NCBI GenBank assembly: GCA_021162245.1
Contig: JAGGZD010000018.1
Coordinates: forward strand, 1-62,683
Direction: 5' to 3'
DNA from: Dehalococcoidia bacterium
GTDB lineage: Bacteria > Chloroflexota > Dehalococcoidia > GIF9 > AB-539-J10
Length of the DNA: 62,683 bases
This document shows, one piece after another, positions 5,182 through 62,435 of the stretch; within the stretch, counting starts at the first letter, position 1, and every line of letters starts with the position of its first letter. Below the pieces are notes generated by a model. That model was not told the origin of the DNA. It saw only the letters and a program-made list of their open reading frames with translations, and made no database searches. The position numbers and the translations under genes were made by a program.

Positions 5182-5256
5182 TGGCTCCCCGAGTAGGATT
5201 CGAACCTACAACCTTACGGTTAACAGCCGTCTGCTCTACCATTGAGCTATCGGGGA
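5182..5256 (-). tRNA. tRNA-Asn (GTT), CCA encoded
   Basis: Reverse complement folds as a cloverleaf: acceptor TCCCCGA/TCGGGGA, anticodon loop CTGTTAA, T-arm GTAGG-TTCGAAT-CCTAC, 3' GCCA; 75 nt. Confidence 0.9.
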
Positions 5257-5271
5257 ATCCAGATTAATAAG

Positions 5272-5342
5272 CTGCCGAGCCTGGATTCGAACCAGGGCTA
5301 GAGGATCCAAAGTCCCCCGTGCTACCACTACACAACTCGGCA
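5272..5342 (-). tRNA. tRNA-Gln (TTG), no CCA encoded
   Basis: Acceptor TGCCGAG/CTCGGCA, anticodon loop CTTTGGA, T-loop GGTTCGAATCC; 71 nt. Confidence 0.88.
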
Positions 5343-5355
5343 TCAACTCTCTTCG

Positions 5356-5440
5356 TGCCGAAGGTCGGAGTCGAACCGACACGAGAGTTGCCTCCCAACA
5401 GTTTTTGAGACTGCCGCGTCTACCATTCCGCCACTTCGGC
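5356..5440 (-). tRNA. tRNA-Leu (CAA), long variable arm, no CCA encoded
   Basis: Acceptor GCCGAAG/CTTCGGC, anticodon loop CTCAAAA, long variable arm, T-loop GGTTCGACTCC; 85 nt. Confidence 0.88.
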
Positions 5441-5458
5441 ATGTCTGCTCCCTTCAAG

Positions 5459-5533
5459 TGGAGCGGAAGACGAGATTCGAACTCGCGACCTCTTCCTTGG
5501 CAAGGAAGCATTCTACCGCTGAACTACTTCCGC
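5459..5533 (-). tRNA. tRNA-Gly (GCC), CCA encoded
   Basis: GCGGAAGTAGTTCAGCGGTAGAATGCTTCCTTGCCAAGGAAGAGGTCGCGAGTTCGAATCTCGTCTTCCGCTCCA; anticodon loop TTGCCAA. Confidence 0.92.
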
Positions 5534-5567
5534 ATCCTCAGAGCACAAATTTTTTATGTTGTTAAAG

Positions 5568-5640
<73 letters not shown>

Positions 5641-15073: not shown

Positions 15074-15147
15074 ACGGGGCGTAGCGCAGCCTGGTAGCGC
15101 GCAGCGTTCGGGACGCTGAGGTCGGAGGTTCGAACCCTCTCGCCCCG
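15074..15147 (+). tRNA. tRNA-Pro (CGG), no CCA encoded
   Basis: CGGGGCG acceptor, D-arm GCGC-AGCCTGGTA-GCGC, anticodon arm CAGCG-TTCGGGA-CGCTG, T-arm GGAGG-TTCGAAC-CCTCT; 74 nt. Confidence 0.92.
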
Positions 15148-15379
15148 ATTTATATTTTCACGAAAGTTAATGGCGTTGATTAACTGTCACCTGGCTTCCT
15201 TAGCTCGTCGGGAGTGCCTAGGGAGTGGAATTATCGGGTCATGGTAAATTTTAATTCATCAGGTAAAAGGGATGAATCTGCAGGAAAACCAAAGTTGCTC
15301 AGGGAGTGTTTTCATTGGTAGCCTTAATGGGAATGTGCTCTTCCAGACAAGAATAACATTGCTTAGAGCTACAGGGGTG

Positions 15380-54492: not shown

Positions 54493-55587
54493 TTACACAT
54501 CCTGAAATCGTGGAGCCAGTTTTTTGCTCACCTCTGGCATGGTGGTATATTCCATTTGTTCAAGCGGCAGGCGATGTGGTTCAAAAGGCCCCATGCGTCG
54601 CAAGTAATCAGCTATCTCATTCGCTTGCCGACGAGCTGAATCAAAAGCAGGGTCATCAAAAAGGTCATTAGCACCAATAAGCTTGCCATCTGCTAGCTGG
54701 AAGCCAGCAGCTATTACCCTTGGGGGGCCATCGAAGCGAGTACATTTAGCCTGGTGAAAAGGAACTGGCATCAACGGACCATGATGAGAGCCTCTCATCC
54801 ATCCTTCCACTATATTAGGCGAGGCAAATGGCTCAAGCACTTCTCCCACAGCAGGGAATTTACCCTGAGCCCTGACAATGCAAACAGGGTCATCCTTGCC
54901 TACATATCTTCCCGCAATTAAAGCTAAATGTTGTGTAGAAGAAGATGCAGCAATTTCCCCACTCTCCTTATGGTATACAGCCTTAACAGGATAACGATTT
55001 GGTGCCCCCATGAAAACAAGCATATCGTAAATTTCCTCAGGAGCATCGAAAAAAATCTTCTTTGCCTTTATAACATCATGAATCTCAAATTTAAAGCCGC
55101 CGTGCATGTTGGCTGCAATCACCAGTCCAATAGTATTAAAAGGGTCAGCGAAGATTTTGTACAACGGCAAATTCCAAGCACCCGAAGCCGTCTTATCAGC
55201 CATGAATATTATTATACTTTCAGCTTTACGCTCGGCGAATTGCATCTCAGCTACACCAGGTCCCATCCCCCTGACATTACCAGAGAAAGCGTCGGCTAAC
55301 AGGTCTTGCCCCGCACCATGCAACTTTAATTTCTTAGCCACATTGGTACATTCCACAAAGGTATCCCAGGCTAGTTTGTGAACTTGCTCATTTCCCTCAC
55401 CTTTCTGGTGAGTCATTATCAATTGAAGGTCATCACCACAAACTGTGACGTAGTAATCGATTAACATACCCTGTTCCTTAGCATGCTCCATACTTTCCTT
55501 AGCTCTCTGTATCACATCCGGGTGGGAACTGGAATGCCCCACATAGCCACCAACATCCGCCTTGATAACGCTTAAAGTTATATCCAT
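54493..55587 (-). CDS. fbp: Bifunctional fructose-1,6-bisphosphate aldolase/phosphatase (class V FBPase, archaeal type)
   Basis: 364 aa. ITLSVIKADVGGYVGHSSSHPD start is characteristic of the family. Confidence 0.92.
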   Translation of the reverse strand: MDITLSVIKADVGGYVGHSSSHPDVIQRAKESMEHAKEQGMLIDYYVTVCGDDLQLIMTHQKGEGNEQVHKLAWDTFVECTNVAKKLKLHGAGQDLLADAFSGNVRGMGPGVAEMQFAERKAESIIIFMADKTASGAWNLPLYKIFADPFNTIGLVIAANMHGGFKFEIHDVIKAKKIFFDAPEEIYDMLVFMGAPNRYPVKAVYHKESGEIAASSSTQHLALIAGRYVGKDDPVCIVRAQGKFPAVGEVLEPFASPNIVEGWMRGSHHGPLMPVPFHQAKCTRFDGPPRVIAAGFQLADGKLIGANDLFDDPAFDSARRQANEIADYLRRMGPFEPHRLPLEQMEYTTMPEVSKKLAPRFQDV

Positions 55588-58944: not shown

Positions 58945-58974
58945 TTGACATTATGGCACAAAGCTGTTTACAAT
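58945..58974 (+). promoter_or_regulatory. Candidate promoter for the CetZ-like gene, leaderless-type geometry
   Basis: TTGACA (58945-58950), 18-nt spacer, TACAAT (58969-58974). ATG at 58982 is 7 nt after the -10 hexamer and has no Shine-Dalgarno sequence. Confidence 0.5.
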
Positions 58975-58981
58975 AAACCAA

Positions 58982-60154
58982 ATGAAATTATTAATTATAG
59001 GTTTAGGTCAATGCGGTGGCAGGATCGCTGATAGATTTGCTCGGCTAAACAAGAAGGCACGGTCTATGCGGGGAATTAGTATAATTGCTGATGCCTTCGC
59101 TGTTAATACTGATGTAGCTGATTTGAGTGGGCTACGCACTATTAAATCTGATTACAAACACAGAATACTTGTTGGTGGCCAAAGGACTAATGGCCACGGA
59201 GTAGGTAAGGTAAGTGAACTTGGCGCCGAGATAGCTACGGAAGATAATGATAAAATTATAGATGCTATAAGGACAACAGAGCGGTTCTATGAAACAGATG
59301 CCTTTATGTTGATCGCTTCTGCCTCCGGTGGCACTGGCTCCGGAGCAATAGGGGTAATGACACAGCATCTGAAAGAACGCTATATAGGAAAGCCAGTTTA
59401 CAATATTATTGTTCTTCCTTTCCAGCAAGAAGAAACAACAGAAGCAAGGACTATTTACAACACAGCTATGTGCCTCAAATCCGCATATCTGGTGGCTGAT
59501 GCAATATTCCTTATCGACAATCAGAGATACATCAAAAAGAACTCCCCCGCAGAAAACAACATAGCGACGATTAACTCTCGGGTAGTTGAGCCATTTTATA
59601 ACTTGCTTTGTGCTGGGGAGGAGACAAACAAGAAATATGTCGGATCGAAGACGCTAGATGCAGGGGATATAATACAGACACTGGCAGGCTGGACAGTAAT
59701 TGGCGAAGGCAAATCGTCAATTCGAAGAAAGATGCCTTTGCTTGGACAAGCACGTGATTTCAGAGACAGGATGTCTGAAACAAGCAAAGCTGCTCATGCC
59801 ATGGACGAAGCACTGGGAGAATTATCGCTCACGTGTAGCCCCAAAAATGCTGGAAGGGCTTTGTATCTCGTCACTGCGCCGCCAAGTGAAATGAAAATGG
59901 AAGTAATACAACAACTTGGGGACAATTTAAAGGCTGTGGCTCCAGATGCTTTGACCCGCAGTGGTGATTACCCCAGACAGAAGGGCTCATTGAGCGTTAC
60001 TATGATTCTATCGGATATCAGCAACACGAGGAAAGTCACAAAGTACTTTACTAAGGCAATCGACTTGATTTCTGTTATGAAATCTAAACGCGGGCTGGAG
60101 TACTCAGGCAGAAAGCTTGAAGAGGCTTTCAGCGACATTCCTGTATTACTATAA
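58982..60154 (+). CDS. Tubulin/FtsZ-superfamily GTPase, CetZ-like
   Basis: 390 aa. T1 loop IIGLGQCGG, GHGVG...ELGAEIATED, T4 signature ASGGTGSG (aa 114-121), HLKERY..KPVYNIIVLP, FLIDNQRY (tubulin/CetZ-like DN motif), IIQTLAG, C-terminal SGDYP. Confidence 0.8.
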   Translation: MKLLIIGLGQCGGRIADRFARLNKKARSMRGISIIADAFAVNTDVADLSGLRTIKSDYKHRILVGGQRTNGHGVGKVSELGAEIATEDNDKIIDAIRTTERFYETDAFMLIASASGGTGSGAIGVMTQHLKERYIGKPVYNIIVLPFQQEETTEARTIYNTAMCLKSAYLVADAIFLIDNQRYIKKNSPAENNIATINSRVVEPFYNLLCAGEETNKKYVGSKTLDAGDIIQTLAGWTVIGEGKSSIRRKMPLLGQARDFRDRMSETSKAAHAMDEALGELSLTCSPKNAGRALYLVTAPPSEMKMEVIQQLGDNLKAVAPDALTRSGDYPRQKGSLSVTMILSDISNTRKVTKYFTKAIDLISVMKSKRGLEYSGRKLEEAFSDIPVLL

Positions 60155-60267
60155 GCAGTCTTCTAAACTTGCACACAGCAAAATATCAGGTATGACTCCC
60201 TACTAGCCATTAAAAGGCAAACTGGTGTACGGCATGACTAAAGAGAGTGTTTGACTTGTGACCCTCC

Positions 60268-60657
60268 CTATTTCCTGGCTTTAACAAATACCGCCCATGT
60301 CCGCTCCAGAGCCTCTTTACGGGATTCTCGAGCTTTCATTTCAGCCTCTTCACTTATCCTCAGTGCACGGCTTACGCTACTCTCGAAAGTTTTCCTAGCC
60401 TGGGCTATACTTTCCTCACAGCTCTTCCTGGCTCGTTCTACAACTTCATCATATACCTTATTTGCCTGTCGCTCTTGCTCTTTATAAGCTTCTTCTAACT
60501 GACGTTGAGCTTCCAAGTAAGCCGTATAGGCAGCAGCAGCTCGCTGCTGAGTTTCACTAAGAAAATCAACAGTCTGTTCAATTTTCTTAATGTCCTTCTT
60601 GCCTTTTTGCTCAGTTCCCCCTTTATCCGCAACAAAAACTTGCTCTGGCTCTGGCAT
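60268..60657 (-). CDS. Small Glu/Lys/Ala-rich coiled-coil protein, unknown function
   Basis: 129 aa. Helical-repeat composition similar to the upstream 543-aa gene. 70 nt downstream of it on the same strand. Confidence 0.6.
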   Translation of the reverse strand: MPEPEQVFVADKGGTEQKGKKDIKKIEQTVDFLSETQQRAAAAYTAYLEAQRQLEEAYKEQERQANKVYDEVVERARKSCEESIAQARKTFESSVSRALRISEEAEMKARESRKEALERTWAVFVKARK

Positions 60658-60727
60658 AATATACCTCCTTTATCACTGAACCTCTATTCTATCTCTTTCA
60701 CCAAAAAGAATCTACCTTCGCTTCTAT

Positions 60728-62359
60728 TCAATCTTGTTCTATCTCATCTCTGTCCACAGCTTCCTCCTCAACATACTCATCTTTACCCGCCATATACATT
60801 CGAGCTAAGAAATCCAAGCGCGATTGGACATCTCTCTTAGAATCCACTAGTTTTTTCTTCTCTTTTTCACCGCCCTCAGGTTTACGTAAGGCTTTCTCAA
60901 ATATCTTTAATGGCACTTCAGGGGCCTCCCCTTTGGGGATCTCCTTTGCAATTCCTCCACCCGTTTTCTCAGTTCCACCTACCGCTTTTTCAAAGACCCG
61001 CATTGATGCTTTTGCAGCTCTCCTAGCCGATTTGGTTGTTGCCTCAGCCACAGCAATCGTCTCTCCAAATGCCTTTATCGATGTCATAACAGCCTCTCTA
61101 GCTATCTCTATCGATTTTTCAGTAATCTCTGCAATTATCCGTTTGGACTCATCAGTAACCTCTGCAGTTTCTTGGCCTATTCCCTCAGCTTTGCTTATTG
61201 CTTCCTGAGATGCTTTCTTTGCTTCCTCAGCAGACGCTTTAGCCATTCGGCTTATTTCCTCAGCCTTGCTTATTGCTTCTTGGGATATTCTTGCTGCTTC
61301 TTCGACAGATATTCTAGTCTCTCGGCTTATTTCCTCAGCCTTGCTTATTGCTTCCTGGGATGCTTTCTTTGCTTCCTCAGCTCTACTTGCCGCTTCTTGC
61401 GATGTTCTTGTTGCCCTCTCAATAGCCTCTTCGGCCAATCTAACTGATTTCTCAGCTTCGCTTACCGCCCTCTGCGATGCTTTTATTTGTGTTTTAGCCT
61501 CTTTTCGGGTCATTTTGATTACTTCATTAGCTTTATCTATAGCCTCTTTGAATGAAGTTGCTGAAGTGGCAGCAGATTCATTAGCCAAGCGGCTTACATT
61601 TTCAGCCTTATTTATCGCTTCCCTAAATGCTCTTGTTGAGGCTTCAACAGATTCCGTAGTTGCCTGGCTTATTCTCCCAGTTCTATCTACTGCTTCCTGA
61701 GATGCTCTTTCCGATTCTCTGGCAGACTTCACAATCGCTCGGCTCAATTTCTCAATTCTACTTATGGCCTCCCTGGATGCTTTTCTCGCCTCCTCAGCAG
61801 TTTCTATAGCTGTCTGGCTTACCTTCTCAGCTCTATCTACTGCTTCCAATGATGTCTCTTTAGCATTCTCAGCAATTTCTATCGCCGTCTGGCTCACCTT
61901 CTCAGCTCTATCTACTGCTTCTTGGGATGTTCTTAGTGATGCCTCGGCAGATTCATTACTTGATTTGGCCAACACCTCAATCCTGGCCACAGCTTCTTCA
62001 AATGCTTGCGTTAACGCTTTAGTGGAATCCATAGCCGATTTGACCGATGCCTCAGCTTTGTTTATCGCTTTACGGGATGATCTTCTCGCCCCTTCAACAG
62101 CCTCTGTAGCCGCCTGGCTTACTTTCTCGGCTCTATCTACTGCTTCCTGAGATATTCTCTCCGATTCCCTGGCAGTCTTTTTGGCTGCTCGACTTATCTT
62201 CTCAATTCTATCTATAGTTTCCTGAGACGCCTTTCTCGATGCTTCAGCAGCTTGTTTGGCTACATAGCTTAGCCTCTCAGCTTCGGCCACCGCCTGTTCA
62301 AATGTCCCAATATCAGCTTTCATATTCTTCAAGGATTCAGGGGACTTGTTCCACTCCAC
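60728..62359 (-). CDS. 543-aa alpha-helical repeat protein (about 17 x 25-residue repeats) with acidic C-terminal tail, unknown function
   Basis: Repeats such as EAVDRAEKVSQTAIEIAENAKETSL / EAVDRAEKVSQTAIETAEEARKASR / EAISKAEEISRMAKASAEEAKKASQ. GTG start uncertain, no clear Shine-Dalgarno sequence. Confidence 0.75.
   Translation of the reverse strand: MEWNKSPESLKNMKADIGTFEQAVAEAERLSYVAKQAAEASRKASQETIDRIEKISRAAKKTARESERISQEAVDRAEKVSQAATEAVEGARRSSRKAINKAEASVKSAMDSTKALTQAFEEAVARIEVLAKSSNESAEASLRTSQEAVDRAEKVSQTAIEIAENAKETSLEAVDRAEKVSQTAIETAEEARKASREAISRIEKLSRAIVKSARESERASQEAVDRTGRISQATTESVEASTRAFREAINKAENVSRLANESAATSATSFKEAIDKANEVIKMTRKEAKTQIKASQRAVSEAEKSVRLAEEAIERATRTSQEAASRAEEAKKASQEAISKAEEISRETRISVEEAARISQEAISKAEEISRMAKASAEEAKKASQEAISKAEGIGQETAEVTDESKRIIAEITEKSIEIAREAVMTSIKAFGETIAVAEATTKSARRAAKASMRVFEKAVGGTEKTGGGIAKEIPKGEAPEVPLKIFEKALRKPEGGEKEKKKLVDSKRDVQSRLDFLARMYMAGKDEYVEEEAVDRDEIEQD
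61040..62300 (-). repeat. In-frame tandem 75-nt (25-codon) repeat array inside the 543-aa gene
   Basis: TCTATCTACTGCTTC at 61682, 61832, 61907 and 62132 (spacings 150, 75, 225). CGGCTTATTTCCTCAGCCTTGCTTATTGCTTC at 61248 and 61323 (spacing 75). 61793-61847 vs 61868-61922 differ at about 4 positions. Confidence 0.85.
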
Positions 62360-62405
62360 AAAGACTAAAGATTTCTATACCCCGTTTTCATTTCCACTAA
62401 GTTTA

Positions 62406-62435
62406 ATTTTAATAGGAGTTACCTGGTTTTTTCAA
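62406..62435 (-). promoter_or_regulatory. Candidate promoter for the repeat-protein operon
   Basis: Minus strand TTGAAA (62435-62430), 18-nt spacer, TAAAAT (62411-62406). Confidence 0.35.

Follow-up and report, generated by a model that had tools for sequence, protein, structure and literature searches.

Introduction

CetZ proteins are tubulin-superfamily GTPases that have been described as archaea-specific (PMC9856176). Those that have been characterised act in cell shape and motility, not in division, and both the hydrophobic tail and the tip of the M-loop of CetZ1 are required for rod formation. Around archaeal cetZ genes, what is found are genes for type IV pili, F420 and sugar epimerases, and no coiled-coil partners (PMC9856176). 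For bacteria, Santana-Molina et al. (2023) have reported "sparse paraphyletic" CetZ-like groups in Chloroflexota-Dehalococcoidia, which lie outside canonical CetZ and have C-termini that match the CetZ_C hidden Markov model, with no discussion of partners (PMC9871819). Here we describe a 62,683-nucleotide (nt) stretch of DNA from a bacterium of the Dehalococcoidales, in the class Dehalococcoidia (contig JAGGZD010000018.1; the whole stretch is hereafter called the window) that encodes a CetZ-like GTPase, CetZl, convergent with an operon for two helical proteins, the long 25-residue-repeat protein ccL and the short protein ccS. Because of their linkage across genomes, a functional association of the three genes is very likely, and the analysis points to CetZl, ccS and ccL as a conserved, lineage-specific cytoskeletal module of the Dehalococcoidales. 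Searching the literature, we found no description of this three-to-five-gene module, of ccS or of ccL; likewise, no partner encoded beside a cetZ gene was found described in work on CetZ.

The Dehalococcoidales are without dcw (division and cell wall) and peptidoglycan genes, have kept mraZ-mraW-ftsA-ftsZ, and possess an archaeal-like surface layer (S-layer) (PMC10608941). In Dehalococcoides mccartyi 195, FtsZ and FtsA are encoded by DET0343 and DET0342, and there are extra "FtsZ" genes, DET0589 and DET0636 (PMC5102406). DET0589 adjoins the gap gene (DET0590), a synteny that matches the gap-CetZl loci reported below, and on this basis DET0586-0588, all or mostly annotated as hypothetical, are likely orthologues of ccS and ccL. 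Array data for strain 195 show that DET0586-0588 co-vary as one operon (r = 0.83-0.93) and that DET0589 co-varies with gap; moreover, DET0586-0588 are induced by solvent toxicity (saturating tetrachloroethene, PCE) independently of DET0589 (PMC4340931). Two proteins of strain BTF08, the "FtsZ/tubulin GTPase" btf_0551 and the nearby hypothetical protein btf_0548, are candidate homologues of the window genes; both are abundant in disc-shaped cells from pure culture, and in barrel-shaped cells from co-culture their levels are low or below detection (PMC8163811).

Linkage of the three genes

CetZl lies on the plus strand of the window (58982-60154) as an open reading frame (ORF) of 390 amino acids (aa) and is followed, after a convergent intergenic gap of 113 nt (60155-60267), by ccS on the minus strand (60268-60657; 129 aa). 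A spacer of 70 nt separates ccS from ccL, also on the minus strand (60728-62359; 543 aa as the maximal ORF). This layout agrees with an initial annotation made from the sequence, which had placed the three ORFs and the 113-nt gap in the same way. That annotation had suggested a cytoskeletal pairing from adjacency, had named conservation of the neighbourhood as the test of it, and had held that the idea would fall if homologues of the GTPase never neighboured such genes, or if the coiled-coil genes were widespread without the GTPase and had an unrelated established role.

The neighbourhood proves to be conserved. When one genome per species was scanned, at least 557 genomes (of 599 pattern-matched stretches) proved to encode a relative of CetZl; the best 80, all Dehalococcoidia-type metagenome-assembled genomes, were examined. 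At each of the 38 loci with 70% identity or more, a convergent coiled-coil gene lies downstream; ccS is present in 37 of the 38, and ccL in all whose contig reaches far enough. In a neighbor-joining tree of 106 CetZl copies, 71 fall in the clade of the window protein, and in 70 of these ccS and/or ccL follow in convergent orientation at a distance of 10-290 nt, the sole exception being at a contig edge. The association with coiled-coil genes is therefore near-universal in this clade. The genes on either side of the module, in contrast, vary: the upstream neighbour belongs to 14 families over 33 loci and the gene beyond ccL to 13 families over 32 loci, and the flanks seen in the window recur only in its closest relatives (e.g. 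L001, L085-L088). Among loci that keep the adjacency, identities fall to ~50-58% for CetZl and ~26-35% for ccS and ccL.

The linkage also holds when it is approached from the other side. A metagenome scan with the ccL motif RL[DQE]FL[AS][RK]MY gave 153 confirmed loci; the best 80 were taken, and 60 of these have at least 1.3 kb of downstream sequence. A convergent CetZl is present in 58 of the 60, with ccS between the two genes in 55, so that the coiled-coil genes are not widespread without the GTPase. The two exceptions are of different kinds. At one (L150, 814-1878), a co-directional, divergent gene of 354 aa with Tubulin and CetZ_C domains comes directly after ccL; at the other (L134, 1721-3197), a truncated ccS is followed by integrase/resolvase-like genes, which suggests a mobile-element insertion.

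Paralogues and rearranged forms extend this picture. In ~20 loci of Dehalococcoidaceae type (L040, L045-L050, L052, L055, L058, L062, L066-L068, L070, L071, L075-L078), two CetZl genes enclose the partner operon: gap is followed by CetZl-1, both pointing towards ccS and ccL, which point back at them, and CetZl-2 then leads into dnaX, divergent from ccL at a distance of 170-510 nt. A third paralogue with 39-46% identity and an LPTLD tail occurs at L057, L064 and L080, and tandem CetZl pairs are seen at L060, L061 and L084.

The CetZ-like GTPase

CetZl matches the Pfam families Tubulin (PF00091; 6.8e-33, 115 bits against a cut-off of 33) and CetZ_C (PF21011; 8.8e-17, 61.6 bits against a cut-off of 21.6), and CetZ_C is present in every paralogue clade tested. 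Its nearest solved relatives are Haloferax CetZ1 (4b46; 2e-44) and CetZ2 (4b45; 1.2e-27), followed by 3zid (1.6e-16), whereas the best FtsZ and the best tubulin-like protein in the PDB reach only 1.9e-09 and 7e-08, respectively. With a CetZ from Halorubrum, the protein shares 34% identity along 373 aa. In addition, CetZl scores 52.8 bits against the FtsZ equivalog model TIGR00065, far below its cut-off of 295.2, and has no match to the FtsZ_C domain in Pfam. The assignment to a CetZ-like, tubulin-superfamily GTPase made in the initial annotation is thus borne out by both domains and by the closest solved structure.

The anatomy of the protein is consistent with this assignment. The T1 motif, GLGQCGG, is tubulin/CetZ-like, the T4 motif is SGGTGSGA (residues 115-122), and the T7 motif is LDAGDIIQTL; D229 supplies the acidic T7 residue and aligns, as counted on the 4b46 alignment, with CetZ1 E218, which is reportedly the catalytic residue. 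The M-loop has a hydrophobic tip, PLLG or LFG in the family and PLLG in the window protein. Invariant positions among CetZl homologues comprise GGTGSG, D226, D229 and, in the tail, F383, I386, P387 and L389. The window protein ends in FSDIPVLL-COOH, and in its clade the tail is an invariant F-x-[DE]-I-P-x-L-L-COOH; apart from the LPTLD clade, paralogues with an intact C-terminus end in [DE][IL]PxL[LI], occasionally with one or two further residues. The sequence of CetZl therefore shows a tubulin homologue of the CetZ type in which the motifs for nucleotide binding and T7 catalysis are intact. Its distribution is not that of the canonical clade of CetZ, which is euryarchaeal, given that the best 80 loci are all from Dehalococcoidia/Chloroflexota bacteria; because of this bacterial distribution, and because the literature places such proteins outside canonical CetZ, CetZl is best filed as CetZ-like.

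Homologues of CetZl are numerous, with 5662 at E <= 0.001 among the scored candidates, and those with names are from Dehalococcoidia/Chloroflexota. Two metagenomic contigs carry a 98% identical CetZl in the same context as the window and hence derive from the same or a very close species. In the plasmid collection, the homologues from outside Dehalococcoidia are all haloarchaeal CetZ paralogues. A phage, defence or plasmid origin of the module was considered and rejected on the basis of PHROGs, PADLOC, and phage and plasmid searches.

The helical proteins

AlphaFold2 predicts ccS to be a single continuous helix (residues 15-128; mean predicted local distance difference test score, pLDDT, of 85), which in the model would be ~17 nm long, preceded by a disordered and variable N-terminus. 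Its core carries the conserved sequence QRAAAAYxAYxEAxRQ and an invariant aromatic pattern, AAYxAY...AY, and is followed by 11-residue repeats of the form ARKxxEExIAQ, the copy number of which differs among species, and a conserved C-terminus, ExxWxVFxKARK. Residues L33, A43, Y44, A46, A50, Y58 and W121 are invariant in the homologue alignment, and the hydrophobic period is 3.64 residues. The family is narrow, comprising 39 proteins by profile search. A distant ccS-like C-terminal region (~27% identity) was also observed, joined to a PAS domain in P0151 and standing by itself in P0152. The loci concerned (L082, 77-1036; L083, 96-1055; L081, 309-995) are close to plsY and at the ends of contigs, and no CetZ-like gene is visible on them.

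The 25-mer repeat that the initial annotation had noticed in ccL is supported by three signals. Tandem repeats with a 75-nt period are present in the DNA; residue autocorrelation reaches 0.35-0.37 at a lag of 25, compared to 0.05-0.12 off-lag; and hydrophobicity shows a single, sharp spectral peak, at 3.57 residues or 25/7, over ~440 residues. These values correspond to about sixteen 25-residue repeats, each built from three heptads and a four-residue stutter, which are punctuated roughly every 125 residues by AFxEA/NESA repeats. The rod is preceded by an N-terminal motif, FEQAVAEAE in the window and FExAVARAE in its conserved form. It is followed by a Gly/Pro-rich, disordered linker (~residues 462-481), by the conserved peptide RLDFLARMY, the general form of which is RLxFLA[KR]MY, and by an acidic tail. 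Within this C-terminal region R514, L515 and L518 do not vary at all, while M521, Y522 and K526 are almost invariant. Single-sequence AlphaFold2 modelling predicts helices at residues 5-130, 136-261, 266-398 and 403-461 with disorder at 462-481, and the predicted helix breaks appear to coincide with the AFxEA/NESA punctuation. The primary structure thus describes ccL as a long rod with conserved end motifs and a C-terminal peptide on a flexible linker, an architecture like that of intermediate filament proteins in having a long rod, a heptad-derived period with stutters, and a conserved head and tail. The length of 543 aa given in the initial annotation is that of a real maximal ORF, but its GTG start is probably wrong: close homologues begin seven residues before the FE motif, which makes ATG 62323 (531 aa) the probable start, and this choice is also favoured because at least one close homologue has an upstream stop codon.

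Neither helical protein belongs to a described family. No Pfam or NCBIfam family matches ccL, none reaches threshold for ccS, and PHROGs and PADLOC likewise contain no curated family for either; no established role has come to light. In the same Pfam and NCBIfam searches there was no match to the ZapA, ZapB, EzrA, SepF, PspA_IM30 or Snf7 models. Profile searches of the PDB led only to a chemoreceptor coiled coil and to helical proteins designed de novo, and an exhaustive phmmer search of 1.84 billion representative proteins with ccL gave 48 matches, mostly fragments. We also considered that ccS and ccL might be paralogues, as their similar composition could suggest; an hhalign probability of 0.8% led us to reject this, and the resemblance is not one of homology.

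Promoters and flanking genes

The two convergent units each have their own promoter-like site, in keeping with the statement in the initial annotation that they are not co-transcribed. The site ahead of CetZl (58945-58974, plus strand) consists of TTGACA, an 18-nt spacer and TACAAT, agrees with the consensus at 11 of 12 positions, and has a -10 box that ends 7 nt before the ATG. Almost all of loci L001-L038 show the same arrangement of TTGACA, N17-18, TA[CGA]AAT, 7 nt and a start codon, and no Shine-Dalgarno sequence is found for CetZl in the window or in almost all of those loci. Because of the closeness of the -10 box and the missing Shine-Dalgarno sequence, the CetZl mRNA is probably leaderless or nearly so. 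The ccL-ccS operon is preceded by TTGAAA, an 18-nt spacer and TAAAAT (62406-62435, minus strand; 10 of 12 consensus positions), and most of loci L001-L038 conserve TTGAAA, N17-18, TA[AC]AAT about 80-95 nt upstream of the FE motif, leaving a ccL leader of ~40-60 nt. The limits that the initial annotation gave to the module, 58945 and 62435, are the -35 boxes of these two strong promoter-like sites. A Shine-Dalgarno sequence, AGGAGGT (60663-60669, minus strand), stands 6 nt ahead of the ccS ATG. Inspection by eye revealed no obvious operator common to both promoters. Separate promoters and convergent units mean that the module is linked by position, not by co-transcription. A terminator or structured RNA in the 113-nt gap was considered and rejected, since the gap contains no recognisable intrinsic terminator and folds no better than shuffled sequence (z = +1.3, +0.4).

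Opposite ccL, the plus strand contains several long antisense ORFs (60900-62150) that would encode 91-144 aa with a high content of Ala, Ser and Leu. They are most simply by-products of the repetitive, skewed coding sequence, not genes; the GC skew and the AT skew of the 60-62 kb region are both -0.27.

The flanking proteins can be assigned to housekeeping families, as the initial annotation had stated. They include a member of the poly(A) polymerase/CCA-adding family, a GHMP kinase (interpreted here as IspE), an rRNA adenine dimethylase, a class V fructose-1,6-bisphosphate aldolase/phosphatase, a Ham1-family protein and DnaN. The class V (archaeal-type) aldolase/phosphatase (54493-55587, minus strand; PF01950 at 5e-183) is another protein of typically archaeal affinity in the same bacterial genome. 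Five tRNA genes are clustered within 460 nt (5185-5640, minus strand) and one more is found at 15075-15148 on the plus strand; no Rfam families other than tRNA were detected in the window.

Proposed role and alternatives

From the linkage and the character of the proteins, both of which are observed, we infer polymerisation, binding through terminal peptides and a cellular role. On these grounds it seems reasonably likely that CetZl, ccS and ccL constitute a CetZ-based cytoskeleton with dedicated coiled-coil partners that serves the shape or envelope mechanics of peptidoglycan-less cells. CetZl would polymerise with GTP into membrane-proximal filaments or bundles, and ccL and ccS, as dedicated partners of CetZl, would bundle, anchor or position these polymers, with contact probably being made via the terminal peptides. 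Possible parallels are the coiled-coil proteins that bind the C-terminal peptide of FtsZ and the dependence of rod formation on the tail of CetZ1. The most likely role would be in cell shape (the disc form) or envelope mechanics, alongside the separate, retained FtsZ-FtsA division pair, because the Dehalococcoidales resemble CetZ-using archaea in having an S-layer and no peptidoglycan. Given that the strong, leaderless-type CetZl promoter is separate from that of ccL-ccS, the ratio of partner to filament may be tunable, possibly under stress.

Several observations weigh against this proposal. CetZl and ccL-ccS are convergent and have separate promoters, and in the strain 195 arrays DET0586-0588 vary inversely to DET0589 (r = -0.30 to -0.41); if DET0586-0588 are the orthologues, then co-expression with the GTPase at the transcript level is not supported. 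Neither partner is strictly obligatory, L039 and L041 having ccS only and L024, L043, L059 and L078 having ccL only, and eight clade-2 CetZl genes stand alone between or near gap and dnaX with no adjoining coiled-coil genes (L053, L054, L069, L073, L074, L079, L080, L042). The ccL model is a single-sequence prediction of modest confidence (pLDDT of 66), the packing of which is not trustworthy, and Foldseek returned only generic long-helix matches (template-modelling score 0.2-0.3) that are uninformative, so that a fold assignment for ccL was dropped. Finally, a "ruler" model, in which the 25-mers of ccL match successive CetZ subunits, is not supported, because the two repeats would be ~3.7 nm and 4.2 nm, the latter being the subunit repeat of CetZ1.

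A more specific version of the cytoskeletal proposal can be put forward tentatively, as a possibility only. It holds that a CetZ-type tubulin was acquired from archaea and that, with its lineage-specific coiled-coil partners, it forms a self-contained cytoskeleton that sets disc shape and envelope mechanics instead of a wall; two to three paralogues would bracket the partner operon in some families, and the operon would be stress-responsive.

One alternative is a division accessory system. The C-terminal peptide of FtsZ has the consensus D-I-P-x-F-L, which the CetZl tail, [DE][IL]PxL[LI], resembles, and the module might therefore act at the FtsZ ring, with ccL and ccS as analogues of EzrA, ZapA or ZapB and with the CetZl tail sharing or competing for FtsA. 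FtsA and FtsZ are both retained in the Dehalococcoidales (PMC10608941, PMC5102406), Kruse et al. tie lowered FtsZ and tubulin-like protein to barrel-shaped cells (PMC8163811), and the transcripts of DET0589 and DET0636 group with those for growth and respiration (PMC5102406). However, at none of the examined loci does the module adjoin ftsA-ftsZ, the CetZ proteins that have been characterised serve shape and motility, not division, and neither helical protein has similarity to ZapA, ZapB, EzrA or SepF, all of which makes a division role unlikely.

It is also improbable, in our view, that the module is in essence a response to envelope or membrane stress, in which ccL and ccS would coat or stabilise the membrane in the manner of PspA/Vipp1, late embryogenesis abundant (LEA) proteins or apolipoproteins, with CetZl only positioning them or remodelling the membrane with them. 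The induction of DET0586-0588 by PCE independently of DET0589 speaks for this explanation, although these genes are only candidate orthologues. The 11-residue and 25-residue (11+14) repeats are of a suitable type, weak, sub-threshold Perilipin matches are seen in Pfam, and one ccS homologue (P0123) is automatically annotated as "phage shock protein A" by the Joint Genome Institute; no PspA_IM30, LEA or apolipoprotein model, however, is matched at E <= 0.1. Moreover, there are few large hydrophobic residues (~3 per 25), the sharp period of 3.57 is more in keeping with the core of a coiled coil than with a lipid-binding face, and the only amphipathic terminal helix of ccL is followed by an acidic tail.

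That the genes are adjacent by descent or chance in a slowly rearranging genome, with no shared function, is very improbable. The separate promoters of the convergent genes and the sampling of one bacterial class are compatible with such an explanation, but the 13-14 flanking families on each side, the outcome of the reverse test (58 of 60) and the persistence of the association at the lowest identities given above all argue against it, as does its survival through inversion and duplication in the sandwich and tandem forms. A segregation role of the TubZ/PhuZ kind, in which the module would move DNA or plasmids and ccS and ccL would be TubY-like, can hardly be entertained. A weak PHROG match (1.2e-05) and the position of CetZl-2 beside dnaX-ybaB-recR in Dehalococcoidaceae-type genomes speak for it; against it stand the CetZ_C type of the C-terminal domain, the chromosomal location in varied contexts, the lack of a TubR-like DNA-binding adaptor or helix-turn-helix partner in the module, and the results of searches in which no phage homologues and only haloarchaeal CetZ paralogues on plasmids were found.

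Comparison with known systems

CetZ has been treated as an archaea-specific cytoskeleton for shape and motility, and the module described here brings a CetZ-like system to bacteria, where it is widely distributed within a single class. The three-gene module and both partner families appear to be undescribed so far, whereas the superfamily and the CetZ-like GTPases of Dehalococcoidia were already known; the view in the initial annotation that such a system had not been described for bacteria consequently stands for the module and not for the GTPase alone (PMC9871819). Unusually strong, bidirectional gene linkage names two candidate CetZ partners, and the short conserved peptides on CetZl and ccL are direct candidates for binding. 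If the more specific version of the proposal given above holds, no CetZ would have had a known dedicated binding partner before ccS and ccL. The module also bears on how CetZ proteins connect to the envelope, on the transfer of cytoskeletal genes between domains, and on how peptidoglycan-less bacteria, including the bioremediation-relevant Dehalococcoides, hold a defined shape.

Among described systems with a tubulin-like GTPase, TubZ-TubR-tubC (TubY) and PhuZ are similar in that the GTPase is encoded with small partners, of which TubY is a coiled-coil protein; these systems, however, are plasmid- or phage-borne and employ a DNA-binding adaptor and a centromere, whereas our module is chromosomal and has no such adaptor. 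Crescentin, FilP and Scy are long rods that contribute to cell shape and have a non-heptad periodicity, the repeat of Scy/FilP being 51 residues long. ccL resembles these proteins in being a long rod with stutters and conserved end segments, but it has no sequence similarity to them and its period is 25 residues. In contrast to crescentin and FilP, ccL is genetically tied to a tubulin homologue. BtubA/BtubB-BtubC of Prosthecobacter are true tubulins that are co-transcribed with a tetratricopeptide repeat (TPR) accessory protein. They share with the module a bacterial tubulin-family gene that has its nearest relatives in another domain, together with a dedicated accessory, and differ from it in that CetZl is of CetZ type, its partners are coiled-coil proteins, and the genes are convergent or divergent.

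FtsZ with ZapA, ZapB, EzrA or SepF also combines a tubulin-superfamily polymer subunit bearing a C-terminal peptide with helical or coiled-coil proteins, but CetZl falls short of the FtsZ equivalog and is without FtsZ_C, and a separate, genuine ftsA-ftsZ pair is present elsewhere in the group. The closest relationship is to archaeal CetZ, as exemplified by CetZ1 and CetZ2 of Haloferax volcanii. Both belong to the two-domain Tubulin + CetZ_C family and have a GQxGG T1 motif, an acidic T7 residue, a hydrophobic tip on the M-loop and, at the C-terminus, a hydrophobic tail that is conserved, and the hosts of both are S-layered and peptidoglycan-less. CetZl, however, is bacterial and basic (isoelectric point of 9.2) rather than acidic, its tail is an FtsZ-like DIPxLL compared to LESLF in CetZ1, and it is found with coiled-coil partners that the neighbourhoods of archaeal cetZ genes do not contain.

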